From NCBI GenBank assembly GCA_963806755.1, contig CAWDZR010000024.1:12091-76090 (forward strand): a stretch of DNA of 64,000 bases, given 5' to 3'. This document shows positions 44,913 to 52,960 of the stretch, piece by piece; position 1 is the stretch's first letter, and each line of letters begins with the position of its first letter. The position numbers were made by a program, and so were the translations under genes. A model generated the notes under the pieces. The model was given only the letters and a program-made list of their open reading frames with translations. It was not told the origin of the DNA and ran no database searches. The DNA comes from an uncultured Gemmatimonadales bacterium (GTDB lineage: Bacteria; Gemmatimonadota; Gemmatimonadetes; Gemmatimonadales; JACORV01).

Positions 44913-46157
44913 TCAGCCGATGGTGCGGGTGGCCGCGAGCAGCGTCACGTCGTCGTGCGGCTCGGCCGGCCCGGTGAACACGCGCAGCGCCTCGAGGACC
45001 CCCCGGACGAGCGTGGAGGCGGAGGCGTGGTTCGCCCGAAGGGCGTTGCGGAGGCGCTCGGCGCCGAACGCCTCGCCGGCCGGGCTCAGCGCCTCCACCA
45101 GCCCGTCGGTGAACGCGACGAGACCGTGGCCGGGCTCGACCGTCACCTGGCCCGCGCCGTACACCACGTCCGGCATGAGGCCGAGCGCGGGGCCCGTCGG
45201 TCGCAGCTCCCGGGTGGTGCCGTCCGGCGCGATGACGATGGCCGGCTCGTGACCGGCGTTGACGAAGTCGAGCTGCCCGTCCCTGGGGTCCAGCGCTCCC
45301 AGGAACACCGTGGCGAACATGTTGGTGCGCCCGTGCAGCCTGGCGATGTAGTCGTTGGTGAAGCCCGCGACGCGGGTCAGCAGGTCGGCCGGCGTCGCGG
45401 CTTCCAGCGACTGGCGCACGATGGTCCGGCGGCCGCCGATCATCTGGATGGCGCCGCCCCCGATGGGATCGGCGGAGGCGCGGATGAGGCTGCGGAACAG
45501 GGCCATGAACAGCGCCGCACCGACCCCCTTGTCGCACACGTCGCCGACGACCATGACGATCGTGCCGGAAGGCGGCAGCAGGAAGGCGTCGTAGAAATCG
45601 CCGGAGACCTGGCGGGCGGGTTGCAGCGCCGCTTCGAGCTGCACGCCCCTGGCCACCGGGAGCGAGTCCGGCAGGAAGTCGCGCTGGATGTTCCGGGCGA
45701 CCGCCATCTCGCGCGAGAGGCTCTCGGCGTCGCGCAGGCGCCTGCGGTCCAGCGCGGCGCCGAGGCGCGCCCGCAGCATGGACGGCCGGAACGCCGCCGG
45801 GAGATAGTCGTCGGCGCCCGACTCCAGGCATCGCTCGACGGTCTCGAGGTCGTCCACCGCCGCCACCACGATGACCGGGATCCGCTCCAGCTCGGCGTCG
45901 CTCCGGAGCGCCTCCAGGAACCGCGGGCCGTCCATCCCGGGCGTCCGCGCGTCCAGCAACACCAGGTCGAATGCCTCCGCCCGGAGCTTCCGGAGGGCCT
46001 CGCCGGCCTCTCCAGCCGTGTCCACGCCGTGCCCTTCCCGCTGCACGTGACCGCTGAGCGCCTCGCGACCGGCGGCGGCAGGCTCGACGACCAGCACGCG
46101 CGCCGGCACGGCGTCGGGCGCCGGCGCGGTCGTTCCCGGGTGCGGTGGGGTGGTCAT
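44913..46157 (-). CDS. Receiver + SpoIIE/PP2C phosphatase
   Basis: LVLLD..PGMDG receiver; VSGDFYD, GDVCDKG, NAGH, FTDGL and DDVT. Confidence 0.9.
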   Translation of the reverse strand: MTTPPHPGTTAPAPDAVPARVLVVEPAAAGREALSGHVQREGHGVDTAGEAGEALRKLRAEAFDLVLLDARTPGMDGPRFLEALRSDAELERIPVIVVAAVDDLETVERCLESGADDYLPAAFRPSMLRARLGAALDRRRLRDAESLSREMAVARNIQRDFLPDSLPVARGVQLEAALQPARQVSGDFYDAFLLPPSGTIVMVVGDVCDKGVGAALFMALFRSLIRASADPIGGGAIQMIGGRRTIVRQSLEAATPADLLTRVAGFTNDYIARLHGRTNMFATVFLGALDPRDGQLDFVNAGHEPAIVIAPDGTTRELRPTGPALGLMPDVVYGAGQVTVEPGHGLVAFTDGLVEALSPAGEAFGAERLRNALRANHASASTLVRGVLEALRVFTGPAEPHDDVTLLAATRTIG

Positions 46158-46167
46158 CGGGCGCTGC

Positions 46168-47175
46168 TCACCCTCCGTTGAGCACGTTGAGCTGCCAGAG
46201 GTCCCGCGTGCCGGTGTGCAGGAACGGACTGATGGCGAGCGCCCCCGTCTTCCCGATGCTCTGCTCCAGGTAGCGCAGCTCCTCGAGCTGGTCCTTCAGC
46301 TTCGGTTCCGGCACGGCGTCGAACCCGGCCTCGCGCATCATCAGGATCCCCTTGGCGCGGATGGCGAGCTCGGCGCGCAGGCGCAGGAGGCACATCATGT
46401 CCACGATCACCTCCGCGGAGAAGCGGCGTCGCAGGGTCTTGAGGTACTGCCCGACCGGCGTCCCCGAGACCTGCCCCGAACGGAGGAGCCGCAACAGCTC
46501 CTGGTCGGTGTCGAACCCCGACCCCAGCCAGGCCTTTGTGTCCCGCTCGCTCTGCTGGAACACGGCGACGGTGAGGTACGGAAAGACCAGGACGATCAGC
46601 GCCGTCGCCAGCAGCGGCTGCACCAGGAAGTGATTGTACAGCGAGTGCAGGACCACGGCCACGCCGAGCCCGGGGAGGACGAGGGGGAGCCGGAAGGCGT
46701 CGGAGCGGTTGAGCGTCTTCGCGACCATCGCCACGATGGACGTGGCGCCGCCGTGCATGATCGCGGTGCCGAGCCCCCGCACGATCCAGAGCCAGAACGT
46801 CGCGTCCGGATTCGCCTGCAGGTAGTAGAGGTTCTCGAGGAACGCGAAGCCCGTGCCGATGCCGAAGCCGTGGATGGCCGCGTCCACGACGAACCCCACC
46901 TTGTTCCGCTGCAGCAGCCAGACGACGAAGGCGGCCTTGAGCGATTCCTCCACGACGGGGGCGACGTACCGGGAGTACCGATCCCAGTCCAGGCCGAGAG
47001 CCGGCCGCAGCCAGACGTTGGCCGCGTACGCGGCGAGGCCGGCGACCACGCCGGCGGCGACCGACAGCAGGATCGCCCGCAGCGCGACGAGCTTGTAGCT
47101 GTCGATGAGCAGCAGCGCCCCGAGGAACACGAAGACCGGCAGGATGCTGACGGCGACCGCGAGGACGGTCGTCAC
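46168..47175 (-). CDS. prsW: PrsW family intramembrane glutamic protease
   Basis: EESLK, GFAFLEN, IMHG and LHSLYN motifs; multiple TM helices. Confidence 0.85.
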   Translation of the reverse strand: MTTVLAVAVSILPVFVFLGALLLIDSYKLVALRAILLSVAAGVVAGLAAYAANVWLRPALGLDWDRYSRYVAPVVEESLKAAFVVWLLQRNKVGFVVDAAIHGFGIGTGFAFLENLYYLQANPDATFWLWIVRGLGTAIMHGGATSIVAMVAKTLNRSDAFRLPLVLPGLGVAVVLHSLYNHFLVQPLLATALIVLVFPYLTVAVFQQSERDTKAWLGSGFDTDQELLRLLRSGQVSGTPVGQYLKTLRRRFSAEVIVDMMCLLRLRAELAIRAKGILMMREAGFDAVPEPKLKDQLEELRYLEQSIGKTGALAISPFLHTGTRDLWQLNVLNGG

Positions 47176-50165
47176 ATGATCTTGAACGAGAACATCCAGG
47201 CGGAGTGGCGCGGGCCGCCTTGCTCCCGGACCACGGCGAACCCGGTCGACAACGTGGACTCGAGATGGGAGAGCGTGATCAGGCGGACGTCGAGCTGCGC
47301 GCCCACGCTCAGCAGGGTGCGGCGGGTAGCCGGGTCGTCAACGTTGACCGAGAGCCCCGTCCCGAACAGCGACAGGTCGGCCCATTGCAGGTAGAAGCTC
47401 GGGGTGCCGACGCGGCGGAACCGGAGCGGTGGCGTCACCCATTGCACCTGGGCCCTGCCGTAGTTGGCGCCGCCGACGCTGTCGATGTCGATGCCCGGGA
47501 AGCTCCCGATGTTCCCGAACTGCTGGATGTCGCGGTAGTCCACCCAGTTGTTGCCGAAACCGCCAAAGAAGAAGTTGGCGAACGGGTCGGTCCGGGCGCC
47601 CGCCAGTGCCGCTCCCGCGGCGGCGCGGAACCACAGCGACGAATGGTCGAGCGGCAGCAGGAACCCCCGGGACGCGTCCAGACTCACGCGGGGATACAGC
47701 CTCCCGTTCACCGCGTTGCCCTGAACGCCCGCGCCCCAGGTCGAGCCCAGCTCGTCGTCCACGGCTCCGAGGGAGCGACGGAGGGAGGTGTACGCGAGGT
47801 CGCCGGAGAACGAGAGGAGCGTGCGGAAGGGAGCCGCGATGCCCTGGTACTCCGGCAGGGTCGCCAGGCCGCCGTAGCCCGCCGCCGTGAGCGTGTACGT
47901 CAGCTTCCTCGGCTCGTCATAGAGGAGGTTGCCCTGGTACTGCAGCCCCAGGGAATACCCCTTGCGGCTCACCCTCGTGGGCCCGAAGAGGTCGTAGAAG
48001 TCGGCCGGGTTGAGCGCCGCCGACACCTGCCAGTTCCAGTAGTGGAAGTTCGCGCGCAGGTGGAGGCGCTCGGCGGACGCCAGGCGCCGGTCGGGAGAGT
48101 AGCTCCCGGTCAGGTCGAGGGCGGTGGTGCCGATCCGGTCGGACACGTTCACGCGCATGCCGACGGCCACGGCATCGGTGCCGGCCGCATCCTGGTAGCC
48201 CTCGAGGACCGGGTACGCACTGTCCAGCTTGAGGTTGCCCAGCGGCCGGTAGGGTCCCTGCGAGATCGTGACCGAGTCGAGGTCGACCCGCGACGCGGGC
48301 GGCACCGCCCACGACCGCACGTCGGGACGCTTGTCGGCGATCTCGCTCCCCAGGAAGCGAATCGCGCTCACGCTGTCCACGGCCCGGTTCGCGATCAGCG
48401 AGGGGACGAATCCCCAGCGCGTGTACGCGAAGACGAGGACGGAATCCCTGGAGACGGGCACCGGCCTGAAGAAGCCGGTCTCCGCGTTGCTCAGCGCGTC
48501 GATGTCCTTCGCGTCGAGGTCATAGCGGAAGATGTTCGAGACACCCGAGAGGTACGAGGAGCCGTACAGGTACCTGCCGTCCGGCGAGAACACGAAGTTC
48601 TGCGGCGCCGCGTCGCCGAAGTCGTACAGGGTCTGGGATGTCGTGTCCCCTTGCACCAGGGCCGGGATGTCCATCCTCACCAGCCGCTGGCTTCCGCTGA
48701 TCTCCGACATCGAGCCGACGAGGGTCGCGCCGTCCGGCGAGACGTCCAGGTCGAACAGGTCCCGCCCGTACGGCAGGGTGCGGACCTGATGCCACTCGTG
48801 ATACGGCGGCGGAATGCGGACCAGGGTCGAGAACCCGTTGTCGTGCCGGACGCCCCACAGCGAGCTGTCCGCGGGGTCGAAGGCGAGATCCCCGACCCGC
48901 GCGTCCCTCATCAGGGTCTCGTACCGGCCGGACGCCAGATTCAACGACACGAGGTTCCGCCAGTTGGCGTTGTTGGTCGTGTAGAAGAGCGTGCGGGACG
49001 CCGGATCGTACGCCAGCGAGGTGACGTAGAGCCCCGCGGCCCCCAGCACCTCCCTGATGTTCGTGAGCTTGCCGGTCGCGACGTTGATGGCGGCGATGTG
49101 GCCGACCTGGCCCGGATAGCGGAGGGCCAGGTAGAGGTTCCCGCTCGCCGAGTCGTAGTACGCCCGGGAGACGGCGCCCAGCGCCCGGTTCGAGACCGGG
49201 CGGGCCGTGGTAACCGGGTGCCGCCGGATGGCCGCGAGGTTGGAATCCTGCCAGTCGCGCTCCCACGCGATCCAGCGCGACCACTCGTCCTCGAGCGACC
49301 GGCCGTACACGTGCTGGAACTGCGCCGAGAAGTAACGCCGGCTGCCCGCGGTCCGGTTGAACCACGAGAGCAGACTGTCGTCGCCGTAGCGCAGCGCCAG
49401 GTAGCTGACGAACCGGGTGCCGTAGAGATAGGAGTTGGCCCCGACCAGGTAGTCGACCGTCGTCCCTTCCGCCTCCAGCCCGACGACGTCGTAGATCCGG
49501 GCGCTGTCGCGGACGAGGGTGCGGAACACCATCTCGTCGTAGGGGCCGATCACTCGCCCCACGCCCCCGTTCATCCACGTCTCGAGATAGACGGCGATCC
49601 CCTCCAGATACCATCGCGGCGAGTACCACCGCGGCACGGTGAGGTAGCCGTACAGCATGGACGGCGGGGCGGCCGGGTTGGGCGTGACCTTGCCGAAGAA
49701 GACGGATCGGAAGAACCGGTCCGACGCGGTGGCCTTGTCGGTCGTCACGAGGTGGACCATCTCGTGGTTGAACGAGGAGATGATCCGCTCCTGCGCGGGC
49801 GCCGACTCGTACTCCACTTCGTACGGCGCGATCCCCACGGTGATGTGGTTCTCCGGCAGCGGGCTCGCTCCCGCGTTGCCGTAGTGCCACAGGTCGTGGA
49901 TCAGCACGTCGATCTTGCCCCCGGGCGACCAGTCCCAGAGGCGCTCGTGGAACTGCAGCGAGTTTTCGAAGGCGCCGACCACCAGAGGCACCAGGTAGGA
50001 CTGGAGCGGCGACGTGTACACGAGCCGCATGTCCCGGGTGTCGACCATCTGGAACTGCGCCAGGAGATCGGAGGGCGCCGCCGCCCCCGCGAAGGCGAGG
50101 AAGGCCAGGACCTCCCAGAGGCGCGCCGTGCGGCGGGGGGTCGTCGCGAATCGGTGCGGATGCAT
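47172..50165 (-). CDS. Outer-membrane protein: gluzincin domain + beta-propeller + beta-barrel
   Basis: Signal peptide; HEMVH and WYLEGIA; SPDG repeats; amphipathic C-terminal strands ending WMFSFKIM. Confidence 0.72.
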   Translation of the reverse strand: MHPHRFATTPRRTARLWEVLAFLAFAGAAAPSDLLAQFQMVDTRDMRLVYTSPLQSYLVPLVVGAFENSLQFHERLWDWSPGGKIDVLIHDLWHYGNAGASPLPENHITVGIAPYEVEYESAPAQERIISSFNHEMVHLVTTDKATASDRFFRSVFFGKVTPNPAAPPSMLYGYLTVPRWYSPRWYLEGIAVYLETWMNGGVGRVIGPYDEMVFRTLVRDSARIYDVVGLEAEGTTVDYLVGANSYLYGTRFVSYLALRYGDDSLLSWFNRTAGSRRYFSAQFQHVYGRSLEDEWSRWIAWERDWQDSNLAAIRRHPVTTARPVSNRALGAVSRAYYDSASGNLYLALRYPGQVGHIAAINVATGKLTNIREVLGAAGLYVTSLAYDPASRTLFYTTNNANWRNLVSLNLASGRYETLMRDARVGDLAFDPADSSLWGVRHDNGFSTLVRIPPPYHEWHQVRTLPYGRDLFDLDVSPDGATLVGSMSEISGSQRLVRMDIPALVQGDTTSQTLYDFGDAAPQNFVFSPDGRYLYGSSYLSGVSNIFRYDLDAKDIDALSNAETGFFRPVPVSRDSVLVFAYTRWGFVPSLIANRAVDSVSAIRFLGSEIADKRPDVRSWAVPPASRVDLDSVTISQGPYRPLGNLKLDSAYPVLEGYQDAAGTDAVAVGMRVNVSDRIGTTALDLTGSYSPDRRLASAERLHLRANFHYWNWQVSAALNPADFYDLFGPTRVSRKGYSLGLQYQGNLLYDEPRKLTYTLTAAGYGGLATLPEYQGIAAPFRTLLSFSGDLAYTSLRRSLGAVDDELGSTWGAGVQGNAVNGRLYPRVSLDASRGFLLPLDHSSLWFRAAAGAALAGARTDPFANFFFGGFGNNWVDYRDIQQFGNIGSFPGIDIDSVGGANYGRAQVQWVTPPLRFRRVGTPSFYLQWADLSLFGTGLSVNVDDPATRRTLLSVGAQLDVRLITLSHLESTLSTGFAVVREQGGPRHSAWMFSFKIM

Positions 50166-50276
50166 GGTCAAGGGGACAAAAGGTAGGCGGTGATCCGGGT
50201 TCGCGTTAGGGCGAGCCTGGACCACCGCCTGGGAACCGCCCCGGGCTGAAGGGGCGCTGCGGAAAACTGCCTCAGG

Positions 50277-51398
50277 TCAGTTCTGCGTGCGCATCGCCGC
50301 CTGCATGAACGCCTCAGCCAGCGCCTGACTCTGCGCCAGGGAGCGGAACGCTTCGTTCTGCTGCAGCGTCCGGAACGCCTGGTTGGCCACGATGTCGCGG
50401 AAGGACTGGTTGGCCATCATCTGCGCGTACGCCGAGTTGGCCTGCAGATTCCGGAACGCCTGGTTGGCCATCAGCGACTGGTAGGCCGTGTTGGCCATCA
50501 GCGACTGGTAGGCCGTGTTGGCAATCAGCTGCTGGTAGACCTGGCTGGCCATCACCTGCTGGTAGGCCGAGTTGGCCTGCAGATTCCGGAATGCCTGGTT
50601 GGCCACCAGCTGCTGGTAGGCCTGGTTGGCCGCCGCTTTCTGATAGGACTGGCTCGCCATCAGCTGCTGATAGGCCGAGTTGGCCTGCATGTCCCGGAAC
50701 GCCTGGTTGGCGATCAGCTGCTGGTAGACCGCGCTGGCCATCAGTTGCTGGTAGGACTGGCTCGCGATCAGCTGCTGGTAGGCCTGGTTGGCAACGATCG
50801 TCCGGTAGGCGTCGCTGGCCGCGAGTGTGCGGAACGACTGGTTGTTCATGGCCTGCCGGAACGCGTCGCTCCGGACCAGCTGCAGGACCTGGTCGTTCTG
50901 GAACAGGGCCTGGATCTCGGGGTTCTTGAGCGTCACGTCGGCCTGGGTCATGGCCCGGCCATGATACCGCGCCGCCGCCTCCACCCCGCCGATCGTGCCG
51001 GATCCGCCGCTCAGGGGCGGCCAGCCGGTGACGATCCCGGCGACGACAAGCACGACCGCCACCGCCGCGGTTCCGATGAGCACAGCCTTCCTGTTCATGA
51101 TCGTCTCCCCCATGTGTTCGGCAACCTGTCTCAGTGCCCCGACGGCCCATCGTCCGATGGACGGCGGTGACGCGCCCACCGGCTGCGGCAGCGCGTCGAG
51201 GATCGTCCGCTTCAGGTGGGGCGGCGGCTGGCGCTCCCCCACCTGCCCGAAGAGCACGGCGACGCGGCGCAACTCGGCCGCGAGCGCCCTGGCCTCCGGA
51301 TCCGTCTCCACCAGCGACCGGAACGCGGCACTCCCCTCCGGAGTGTTCGCGCCATCGATCTCCTGGTGGATCAGCTCGACCTGGTTCTGGCTCAGCAT
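50277..51398 (-). CDS. Anti-sigma factor with TM helix and about 22 nine-residue repeats
   Basis: Directly after the ECF gene; ZAS-like N-domain without Zn ligands (IDG...PPPHLK); ANQAYQQLM-type repeats. Confidence 0.72.
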   Translation of the reverse strand: MLSQNQVELIHQEIDGANTPEGSAAFRSLVETDPEARALAAELRRVAVLFGQVGERQPPPHLKRTILDALPQPVGASPPSIGRWAVGALRQVAEHMGETIMNRKAVLIGTAAVAVVLVVAGIVTGWPPLSGGSGTIGGVEAAARYHGRAMTQADVTLKNPEIQALFQNDQVLQLVRSDAFRQAMNNQSFRTLAASDAYRTIVANQAYQQLIASQSYQQLMASAVYQQLIANQAFRDMQANSAYQQLMASQSYQKAAANQAYQQLVANQAFRNLQANSAYQQVMASQVYQQLIANTAYQSLMANTAYQSLMANQAFRNLQANSAYAQMMANQSFRDIVANQAFRTLQQNEAFRSLAQSQALAEAFMQAAMRTQN

Positions 51399-51400
51399 CG

Positions 51401-51952
51401 CTACCGGACTCCTTCACCGAGCGCCAGCCGCAACCGCTCCCGCGCCGTGAACAGCCGTGACTTGACGGTGCGGACGGGAATCTCCAGCACGTCGGCGATC
51501 TCCTGGTACGAGAAGGACACGAAATGCTTCAGCACCACCACGGCCCGATCGTCGGGCTTCAAGCTCATCAACGCCCTCCCGACCAGGTCCTCCGCCTCCG
51601 CCGCCCCATCGGGTGCGGCGCCCGGCGCCGGGATGTCGAGGTCGTCCTCCAGCGTCACCGTCGGTTTCCGGCGCTTCAGCACGTTCAACGACTCGTTCAC
51701 CGCCATGCGATAGATCCAGCTGAAGAACCGGTACCGCGGGTCGTAGGTCCGGAGCTGGCGAAACACGTTCAGAAACACCGTCTGCGTGACGTCCTCCGCG
51801 TCCTGCACGTCGTGGAGCATCCGGAGCGCGACGTTGAACAGCCGTTGCTGGTAGCGATCGACGAGCTCGCCGGCCGCGTTCCGGTCATTCTCGAGGCACC
51901 GCCTGACGAGAGCGCGGTCCTGTTCGTCAGCCGCCACAGGTGTCTCTATCAA
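51401..51952 (-). CDS. ECF RNA polymerase sigma factor
   Basis: DAEDVTQTVF, FFSWIYRMAVN and SYQEIADVLEIPVRTVKSRL motifs. Confidence 0.93.
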   Translation of the reverse strand: MIETPVAADEQDRALVRRCLENDRNAAGELVDRYQQRLFNVALRMLHDVQDAEDVTQTVFLNVFRQLRTYDPRYRFFSWIYRMAVNESLNVLKRRKPTVTLEDDLDIPAPGAAPDGAAEAEDLVGRALMSLKPDDRAVVVLKHFVSFSYQEIADVLEIPVRTVKSRLFTARERLRLALGEGVR

Positions 51953-52153
51953 TTACAACCCAGCCCGCCAAAGGTTGGAGGAGCCCGTCCGGCGGGCCCC
52001 CGGGGGGAAGAACGTGCATCGTGGGGCGCCCCGCTGCAATGCCGGGCCCGGGGCTCTCCGGCACCGGGTGGCGGCTCCCCGCGCCGTGGCGCGGCGGGCT
52101 GGCGGTTTTTGACCTGTTGAGGTCTCATTCAGCGGCCCGCCCCGGAGGGCGAC

Positions 52154-52960
52154 ATGGGGCCCAGCTTCCGGATGACGATCGGCACCGAACCCGGCCAGGT
52201 CGCCGAGGTGGGCGCGGCGTTCGCCGAGTTCGCGGATGCGCACGCCGTCCCGGCCGCGATCCGGCGCAGCCTGAGCGTCGCCCTCGACGACCTCCTGAAC
52301 AACACCATCGCGTACGGATTCGCGGGGCGGGAGGGCGGCGAGGTGCGCATCGAGGTGGAGGTGCGCGCCGATCGGGTGTGCGCCACGCTCACCGACGACG
52401 GCAGGCCCTTCAACCCGTTGGACGCGGCCGCCCCCGACACCGCACTCTCGGTGGAGGAGCGGCAGGTCGGCGGGCTCGGCATTCACCTCGTCCGGCGGAT
52501 GATGGACGAGGTCGGCTATCAACGCCGGGGCGATCACAACGTCGTCACCCTGGCCAAGCTCCTGACGGGCAGGAGCGCGGCGGGTCGTCGCGGAGGACGG
52601 TCCATGGACATCACCACACGCACGCAGAACGGTGTCACCCTGGTCGCCTTCGCGGGCAAGCTCGACAGCAACACGTCGCCGCAGGCCCAGCAGGCCCTCG
52701 ACGCGATGCTCGCGGGCGGCGCGCGGAAGATGGTCGTGGACTTCACGGCGCTCGACTACATCAGCAGCGCCGGGCTCCGGGTCCTGCTCGGCACGGCCAA
52801 GCGGCTGAGCGCGGCGGGAGCAGGAAGCGCGGCAGGCGGGGGGGGCGGGCTGCGCCTGTTCGGCCTGAACGACACGATCCGGGAGGTGTTCGACATCTCC
52901 GGGTTCTCCACGATTCTCGCCGTGTTCGCCACGGAAGCGGACGCGCTTAAGGGGTTCTAG
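52154..52960 (+). CDS. RsbW-like kinase fused to STAS anti-anti-sigma domain
   Basis: DDLLNNTIAY, DDGRPFNP and GGLGIHLV, then GKLDSNT and LDYISSAGLRVL in one frame. Confidence 0.85.
   Translation: MGPSFRMTIGTEPGQVAEVGAAFAEFADAHAVPAAIRRSLSVALDDLLNNTIAYGFAGREGGEVRIEVEVRADRVCATLTDDGRPFNPLDAAAPDTALSVEERQVGGLGIHLVRRMMDEVGYQRRGDHNVVTLAKLLTGRSAAGRRGGRSMDITTRTQNGVTLVAFAGKLDSNTSPQAQQALDAMLAGGARKMVVDFTALDYISSAGLRVLLGTAKRLSAAGAGSAAGGGGGLRLFGLNDTIREVFDISGFSTILAVFATEADALKGF

Follow-up and report, generated by a model that had tools for sequence, protein, structure and literature searches.

Proteolysis of anti-sigma factors is the textbook means of reporting envelope stress, and the routes of diderms (DegS/RseP) and monoderms (PrsW/RasP) are treated as separate. 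In Escherichia coli, where sigmaE is controlled by RseA, DegS and RseP, a change in the outer membrane is signalled through cleavage of a single-pass anti-sigma in the periplasm, after which an M50 protease acts. In Bacillus subtilis, the sigmaW system associates a sigma factor of extracytoplasmic function (ECF) and its adjacent single-pass anti-sigma, RsiW, with the proteases PrsW and RasP. We describe here a locus of an uncultured Gemmatimonadales bacterium, located in a 64,000-nucleotide stretch of contig CAWDZR010000024.1 (the window; G+C content ~70%), in which an ECF sigma factor, an anti-sigma with a repeat tail, an outer-membrane protein, a PrsW-family protease and a PP2C phosphatase are encoded on one strand, and an RsbW-STAS fusion on the other. 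We give roughly even chances to the reading that this block is a copy of a conserved and self-contained envelope module, made of four parts and devoted to proteolytic signalling between two membranes.

The likeness to the sigmaW/RsiW/PrsW/RasP system lies in the ECF gene with its adjacent single-pass anti-sigma, in a PrsW with Glu-Glu and His, and in the availability of an M50 site-2 protease. The cassette differs from it by its diderm host, by the presence of prsW in the same operon with an extra conserved cytoplasmic domain of 130 aa, by an anti-sigma that has no zinc-binding Cys and bears a long repeat tail, and by its obligatory Omp85-peptidase and partner-switch neighbours. With the E. 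coli sigmaE pathway it shares a diderm ECF route using a single-pass anti-sigma, but the block has no PDZ serine protease of the DegS type, its candidate sensor is anchored in the outer membrane, and its membrane-proximal protease is PrsW. The PP2C phosphatase, the GHKL serine kinase and the STAS protein with a conserved Ser recall the RsbU/RsbP-RsbV-RsbW and SpoIIE-SpoIIAA-SpoIIAB switches. Unlike these, the cassette has no nearby group-3 sigma, and loci that lack the ECF still hold the switch beside the genes for tail, barrel and PrsW. Among the Rec-PP2C phosphatases of the RsbY/RssB type, the architecture of Pseudomonas RssB is matched end to end, although at 62.7 bits, far below the 700-bit cut-off.

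The outer-membrane protein also has a catalogued counterpart. In its available sections, the survey of Heinz and Lithgow (2014; PMC4104836) accepts Omp85 subfamilies without POTRA domains and catalogues a 'WD40-like' cluster, a BamA-BamB-like fusion with a three-part architecture and no assigned function, for which Table S3 gives matches of H1XQ58 to the BamA barrel, a TolB WD40 and an aminopeptidase (1z5h). Our protein likewise has a TolB-like propeller and an M1-like aminopeptidase region before its barrel, a likeness at the level of architecture. The same sections mention no PrsW, sigma factor or tail protein (PMC4104836), and no functional study of the subfamily since 2014 was found in the literature, where the names of the cluster turned up in that survey and in one paper citing it only. 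As for sigma factors, the available main text of the ECF reclassification contains neither PrsW nor STAS, and the available part of its supplement gives PrsW for the Firmicutes groups ECF30 and ECF227 only and describes nothing similar around ECF25 (Casas-Pastor et al., 2021; PMC7826278). The original prediction, made from the letters of the window, did not recognise the combination as a described system; we also found, in full-text searches, no literature account of a cassette joining PrsW, an ECF/anti-sigma pair, Omp85 and STAS. We take the cassette to represent sigma control through regulated proteolysis in a form that would rely on an Omp85 subfamily not yet characterised, and what is new here is the ECF promoter motif, the juxtamembrane motif of the tail and the existence of ECF-less cassettes.

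The six open reading frames (ORFs) named in that prediction are all found where it placed them, with the domains it gave them, according to the ORF list and to Pfam and NCBIfam searches (Table 1). By ORF coordinates, the ECF and anti-sigma genes overlap by 4 nt, as do the barrel and PrsW genes, and PrsW and PP2C are spaced by 10 nt; this spacing is consistent with an operon. A sigma-70 promoter scan gave no site, and the two terminator-like sites detected lie inside genes, at chance level.

Table 1. Features of the signalling locus, its neighbours and related tail proteins (positions in the window, unless a locus is named; aa, residues of the protein).
Feature	Position	Strand	Support and remarks
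BTAD + AAA_16 (SARP/STAND-like) regulator, 757 aa	42606-44879	+	convergent with PP2C gene
Rec-PP2C serine phosphatase, 414 aa	44913..46157	-	last operon gene; SpoIIE 5.1e-41 (aa 197-411), Response_reg 1.7e-18
PrsW-family intramembrane protease, 335 aa	46168..47175	-	PF13367 3.9e-20
PrsW core, aa 31-202		-	
PrsW conserved cytoplasmic C-terminal domain, aa 203-335	46171-46566	-	
Outer-membrane protein, 1017 aa	47172..50225	-	start alternatively Met21 at 50165; signal peptide
Gluzincin peptidase domain, aa ~59-333	49227-50051	-	HEMVH at 49752-49766
TolB-like six-bladed propeller, aa ~336-618	48372-49220	-	
Omp85/BamA-like barrel, aa ~655-1017	47175-48263	-	
Repeat-tail anti-sigma, 373 aa	50277..51398	-	NF052375 3.2e-5 (weak, under cut-off)
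Anti-sigma domain, aa 1-~95	51114-51398	-	Cys-less
Anti-sigma transmembrane helix, aa 104-125	51024-51092	-	one hydrophobic helix in sequence
Juxtamembrane motif GTIGGVEAAARYHGRAMTQADV, aa 134-155	50934-50999	-	
Nonapeptide repeats (n = 22), aa 176-373	50280-50873	-	
ECF sigma, 183 aa	51401..51952	-	Sigma70_r2 2.4e-16, r4_2 4.9e-15, Sigma70_ECF; start codon uncertain
ECF-type promoter-like motif CCAAC-N16-TGTA	51954..51978	-	abuts ECF start codon
Second intergenic element TTGCAG-N15-TGCACGTT	52011..52039	-	conserved, Gemmatimonadota only
RsbW-STAS fusion	52154..52960	+	HATPase_c_2 5.5e-24, STAS 2.5e-15; divergent from ECF operon
RsbW-like serine kinase part, aa 1-145	52154-52588	+	
STAS antagonist part, aa 149-268	52598-52957	+	
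Peptidase_C70 ORF, 482 aa	53634-55082	+	Peptidase_C70 2.6e-12, Peptidase_C39_2
Tail protein of L047	6134-7102 of the locus		
Tail protein of L014	8889-9881 of the locus		
Tail protein of L055	8711-9772 of the locus		
Tail protein of L060	8496-9896 of the locus		

A word-indexed search with the barrel protein returned at least 4731 homologues, the best 120 of which are all unnamed or labelled "hypothetical". The comparison of gene order was made on 76 loci from GTDB representative genomes, which derive from the best 80 of 159 confirmed stretches and are no random sample. By label they fall into at least six phylum-level groups, namely Gemmatimonadota, Bacteroidota, Chlorobiaceae/Ignavibacteriae, Acidobacteriota (Thermoanaerobaculia and Aminicenantia), KSB1 and Neomarinimicrobiota. 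Where the sequence extends 1.1 kb or more beyond the barrel gene (65 loci), PrsW directly follows it on the same strand in 63 (exceptions: L067 and L068), with a gap of 0 nt in 30 loci. Where it extends 4 kb or more on the upstream side (40 loci), an ECF gene precedes the barrel gene on the same strand in 38 (exceptions: L014 and L047). RsbW and STAS, located like PP2C with hidden Markov models built for the present analysis, occur within 3.5 kb in all 24 loci with enough flank, and PP2C in 21 of these. The switch genes are divergent from the operon in Gemmatimonadota. Outside this phylum, the RsbW and STAS genes share the orientation of the ECF gene, and STAS ends ~50 bp before it; in one locus of Ignavibacteriae (L055), all eight genes run in the same direction. 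The original prediction had proposed a survey of synteny, holding that its scheme would fall if the genes did not co-occur in other genomes; they do co-occur, and these counts strongly support a single functional unit and rule out chance adjacency. Within Gemmatimonadota, full-length orthologues are present in 9 of 201 sampled genomes (at least 90% complete; two unpublished genomes are counted in the denominator only); G112 has two copies, and G097 has a partial match ending at the contig end.

The original prediction spoke of a ~1000-aa outer-membrane protein; at the stated coordinates lies a protein of 1017 aa that can now be described as a gluzincin peptidase, a TolB-like propeller and an Omp85/BamA-like barrel. 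When 29 homologues, taken from several phyla, are aligned (60% mean column identity), H154, E155 and H158 of the HExxH motif are invariant, as is E208, whose W-Y-L-E-G-I-A context recalls what we take to be the third zinc ligand of M1 gluzincins. Look-alikes of aa 55-340 in the Atlas are clusters named Peptidase_MA_2 (0.95). The full-length AlphaFold model (pLDDT 74.9) predicts a signal-like helix, a helical domain of low confidence, a six-bladed propeller and a C-terminal barrel; the peptidase domain was modelled within this full-length model only, where its pLDDT is low. The best match of the propeller is TolB (Foldseek 4e-9; VIA Z 22.1, rmsd 3.1, 244 aligned), and propeller matches fill the fold search lists of the whole model; the barrel was therefore folded separately. 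This barrel-only model (pLDDT 83.6) has ~16-17 long strands according to DSSP, consistent with a 16-stranded C-terminal barrel of the BamA/FhaC type. Its best Foldseek matches are BamA barrels (7nre_A, 5.8e-6), the first 16 VIA rows all belong to the Omp85 superfamily (BamA, FhaC, CdiB, TamA, Sam50 and Toc75; Z 19.2-15.6, with porins at ~15), and D. radiodurans BamA is aligned over 291 residues (Z 19.2, rmsd 4.7). The most conserved barrel motif, FGGFGNNWVDY, is predicted on the longest loop, after the ~11th strand, a loop reminiscent of the conserved L6 loop of Omp85 proteins, as positioned in BamA. No Pfam Omp85 or POTRA model matched the 1017-aa protein at E <= 0.01, no POTRA or TPS-type domain was seen in the Pfam scan or in the AlphaFold model, and searches of PDB sequences gave weak propeller matches only. 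By analogy with Omp85 proteins, peptidase and propeller are probably on the periplasmic side. The protein is single-copy in the window's own genome. Gemmatimonadota genomes commonly encode other proteins of ~1000-1100 aa that are similar, over their first ~300-600 residues and at 27-30% identity, to the peptidase alone or to peptidase and propeller. Such weaker paralogues were discarded as cassette members, having no adjacent PrsW, ECF or partner switch in the four regions inspected (L079-L082, in G026, G043, G184 and G060); they look like a separate and likewise unnamed family.

The PrsW protein matches PF13367 at 72.6 bits, for a cut-off of 23.5 bits, and is the only one of the window's own genome. 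Residues E76, E77, K80, E114, N115, H141, H177 and N181 are invariant among 29 sequences; we take E76, E77, H141, H177 and N181 to be equivalent to the catalytic residues of the B. subtilis protein, so that the catalytic motifs of this PrsW-family protease appear intact. About 20 positions are also invariant, in the same 29 sequences, in the cytoplasmic C-terminal domain of 130 aa. A profile of this domain gave 655 matches at E <= 0.001 among 1.84 billion representatives, and the 150 matches listed are PrsW-length proteins or fragments, among which the domain is confined to the end of this PrsW subfamily. A Pfam scan of eight matches of odd length returned nothing relevant, Atlas look-alikes of the domain reach at most 0.80, and the PrsW profile had no match among PDB sequences. 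PrsW proteins fused to cytoplasmic signalling domains have been argued to be signalling peptidases (Zhang et al., 2012; PMC3482391, available sections). Here, only three longer forms of PrsW were found, each with an additional membrane region and without a signalling domain. An M50/RseP homologue is encoded elsewhere in the genome (PF02163, 203.4 bits, contig C10), and a site-2 protease is thus available.

Next to the ECF gene lies a single-pass class I anti-sigma, although its match to the anti-sigma model is weak. From aa 176 to its end, the protein consists of 22 units of A-N-Q-A-[YF]-[QR]-x-[LM]-x in perfect register, with autocorrelation peaks at lags 9, 18, 27 and 36 and a period of 27 nt in TRF. 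All tail proteins examined have, immediately outside the transmembrane helix, a motif of the form G-T-I-G-(G)-V…[KRQ]…[YF][RHK]…[TS]..D[VI]; as a regular expression it was recovered in 43 of 47 loci, and two of the four loci that it missed show a variant by eye. In 31 loci, as in the window, tail and anti-sigma domain form one protein, whereas in 12 loci the tail is a separate, N-terminally anchored protein beside a shorter anti-sigma; as with other gene fusions, this connects the tail with the anti-sigma. Repeat units vary between lineages, those of L047, L014, L055 and L060 comprising ANEAFQQLQ, KNDAFAAAF, the 12-aa SAPLDMQASLLK and irregular MQ-rich repeats, and lengths range from 226 to 725 aa; the juxtamembrane motif is constant. 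Tails are fast-evolving through repeat turnover. Their composition is simple, rich in Q, A, S and L, with no recognisable effector domain.

Although its best NCBIfam match is SigW, the ECF sigma scored 122.6 and 113.9 bits against the two SigW equivalog models, whose cut-offs are 209 and 243, and it is not classed as a SigW orthologue. A CCAAC-N16/17-TGTA motif abuts the ECF start codon in 44 of 45 upstream regions, in all phyla sampled. It resembles what we take to be the SigW type of promoter, with AAC at -35 and GTA at -10, and its position would make the operon mRNA leaderless or nearly so. The window contains one match, with 0 expected. When the entire genome (3.25 Mb, 92% complete) was scanned with a position weight matrix (PWM), this site scored 34.5 bits and the runner-up 18.9 bits, no better than the control on reversed sequence. 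Since the motif is unique in the genome, the sigma is predicted to control its own operon only, and its regulon is probably limited to it. A second exact match to the pattern, on contig C20, was rejected: it is antisense within an ORF, in a region of seemingly lower G+C content, and drops out in the PWM scan. On that contig of the window's own assembly, the stretch 239500-246500 has a G+C content that is by eye markedly below ~70%, and may be of foreign origin or have entered the assembly as a contaminant in binning.

Regarding the partner switch, the PP2C half of the phosphatase shows long invariant runs across 17 orthologues, and GDFYD, GDVCDKG, TDG and DDVT are invariant. The ATP-binding boxes of RsbW (N50, and G106/G109) are invariant as well, and so is the Ser-Ser pair of STAS (S204 and S205), in all 14 sequences compared, among them the L047 and L014 proteins. 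Presumably these are the functional residues, which suggests an active PP2C, a GHKL kinase with its ATP-binding boxes and a STAS protein with a phosphorylatable Ser. There is no neighbouring group-3 sigma for which the kinase could double as anti-sigma, the only sigma of the block being the ECF. For a predicted complex of two copies of the RsbW domain with the ECF sigma, the score was 0.01 against a mark of 0.32, in runs made without controls, and it speaks neither for nor against an interaction. The original prediction placed an RsbW-STAS fusion opposite the operon; this is correct for the window, but the fusion is lineage-specific: of 25 Gemmatimonadota relatives, 6 have a single ORF and 19 have separate RsbW and STAS genes. 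The input domain of PP2C changes with the lineage as well (Rec in the window, GAF in L060, unknown in L055). In the window, the receiver (aa 20-131) keeps Asp69, and by eye the Thr and Lys of what we take to be the canonical positions are missing (…VVAAVDD…, …DDYLPAAF…). It is less conserved than the PP2C half; across the 17 orthologues 'YLP..F' is nearly invariant and Asp69 less than 90% conserved. The conserved block contains no histidine kinase gene, and the receiver may be a pseudo-receiver.

Three cassettes have neither the ECF nor the anti-sigma domain and retain tail, barrel protease and PrsW. L047 encodes STAS, tail, barrel and PrsW, and L014 has tail, barrel and PrsW with a divergent STAS. 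The last one, L083 (G112:C10, 6154-14887), is the second and divergent copy of G112 (44% identity), in which a short non-repeat tail protein, the barrel and PrsW are directly followed by PP2C-STAS-RsbW. Since STAS, too, is retained in each of these cassettes, the core would seem to be a protease device to which sigma control was added, and the phospho-switch may serve this device instead of the sigma. Together with the one-operon regulon they also suggest, from three loci only, that PrsW, through its C-terminal domain, is a better candidate than the ECF as target of the switch.

Our proposal for the module is the following. An inner-membrane protein, made of the anti-sigma domain, the transmembrane helix, the juxtamembrane motif and a periplasmic repeat tail, would keep the ECF sigma inactive. 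The zinc peptidase anchored by the Omp85 barrel and the TolB-like propeller, both probably periplasmic, would engage or trim the distal tail, and PrsW, co-translated with the barrel protein, would cut the anti-sigma near the membrane or juxtamembrane collar, as PrsW cuts RsiW in Bacillus; an RseP-type M50 protease encoded elsewhere would then complete the cleavage and free the sigma. The freed sigma would drive essentially its own operon from CCAAC-N16-TGTA and replenish the tail, both proteases and the phosphatase, with a homeostatic feedback loop as outcome and not a broad stress regulon. PP2C, RsbW and STAS would represent an added cytoplasmic phosphorylation input. The interpretation given in the original prediction is partly supported: its cascade, with the repeat anti-sigma as substrate of both the outer-membrane protease and PrsW, is compatible with the anatomy because of the catalytic residues of PrsW, the single-pass anti-sigma with its juxtamembrane motif and the RseP-type protease of the genome.

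Several points weigh against this reading. Beyond the gene content, folds, catalytic residues, motifs, synteny and promoter uniqueness that are observed, it draws on cleavages, contacts, a periplasmic orientation and a direction of signalling that we infer throughout; the side on which peptidase and propeller lie, periplasm or surface, is argued by analogy with Omp85 alone. The tail is outside the anti-sigma in 12 of 47 loci, where cutting it would not directly free the sigma. As the ECF-less cassettes (n = 3) show, the tail-barrel-PrsW trio works without a sigma, and sigma release is not its only purpose. Given its distribution in the sampled Gemmatimonadota, the cassette is accessory and patchy within the phylum, and a regulon confined to the operon agrees as well with proteases that are effectors as with proteases that are sensors. 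Both this narrow regulon and the cassettes without ECF point to the protease device as the core and to the sigma loop as feedback. We tentatively consider, without thinking it likely, that the ancestral unit was a two-membrane proteolytic device composed of a GTIGGV…RY…DV-collared tail anchored in the inner membrane, the Omp85 zinc peptidase-propeller and PrsW, in which STAS/RsbW/PP2C would gate PrsW through its 130-aa C-terminal domain, the ECF/anti-sigma pair having been grafted later, by fusion of an anti-sigma domain to the tail anchor, to give the device feedback on its synthesis.

Because the promoter motif is unique to the operon, the proteases may be output as much as input. It is conceivable, though in our opinion unlikely, that the ECF/anti-sigma pair senses envelope stress otherwise and that Omp85-peptidase and PrsW are induced quality-control effectors clearing damaged envelope proteins, an analogue in one chain of BepA at BAM: the co-transcribed proteins are then the sole predicted regulon, the barrel is BamA-like, and a periplasmic zinc protease acting at BAM is a known theme (BepA; PMC8423444, available sections). 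The near-obligate pairing with PrsW (63/65), the conserved juxtamembrane motif of the tail protein (43/47) and the persistence of the trio without any sigma are nevertheless left unexplained. The trio could also serve secretion or processing, with PrsW freeing the tail at the juxtamembrane motif, the barrel exporting or presenting it in a TpsB-like manner and the peptidase maturing it, the fusion to the anti-sigma only coupling export to expression. PrsW-dependent release and export were indeed proposed by Zhang et al. (2012; PMC3482391, available sections), the Omp85 superfamily includes translocators (FhaC, Z 17.2; CdiB, Z 16.8), and both the large lineage differences in repeat sequence and tail length and the existence of ECF-less variants agree with this idea. 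Still, we hold it to be distinctly unlikely: the Pfam scan and the AlphaFold model revealed no POTRA or TPS-type domain, the simple tails do not carry any recognisable effector domain, and a peptidase and propeller ahead of the barrel are better suited to periplasmic capture.

The place of the switch can be read differently as well. In a classical second anti-sigma layer, RsbW would bind the ECF and be displaced by dephosphorylated STAS, with PP2C as trigger, in line with the presence of RsbW and STAS beside the ECF in 24 of 24 loci, with the end of STAS ~50 bp before the ECF gene outside Gemmatimonadota and with the conservation of the ATP-binding boxes and of a phosphorylatable Ser-Ser. Yet STAS is kept in all three ECF-less cassettes, one of which has PP2C, STAS and RsbW together, and the ECF already possesses a cognate membrane anti-sigma. 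Moreover, RsbW/SpoIIAB-type anti-sigmas act, to our knowledge, on group-3 sigmas through a region that ECFs do not have, and we regard such a layer as quite improbable here.

Whatever the role of the switch, the cassette puts PrsW in diderms of at least six phylum-level groups, locked to an Omp85 zinc protease, a putatively periplasm-spanning tail and a phospho-switch. If the signalling module that we propose is correct, it would give a function to an Omp85 subfamily that has been without one since 2014, establish a new route of communication between two membranes and possibly add a new class of partner-switch targets. If the ancestral device existed as outlined above, it would represent the first partner switch controlling an intramembrane protease and the first Omp85 signalling protease. 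The apparent one-operon regulon and the compact promoter make for a clean and testable circuit.

Genes flanking the block in the window (BTAD/AAA_16, Peptidase_C70, two ORFs of 405 and 142 aa, and ADH) are not conserved with it, a single weak BTAD match being found in the 76 loci. The SARP/STAND-like regulator convergent with the PP2C gene and the ORF with a papain-like peptidase domain of the AvrRpt2 family are therefore not part of the conserved cassette. Finally, a second element, TTGCAG-N15-TGCACGTT, which contains the palindrome GGGGCGCCCC, is located 55-110 bp upstream of the ECF gene, in the intergenic region shared with rsbW-STAS. One match is found in the window for 0.01 expected, and two genome-wide for one in the control. 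The element is present in one copy each, at the same place, in 19 Gemmatimonadota loci, and may act as operator or basal promoter, or as a hairpin in the RNA.

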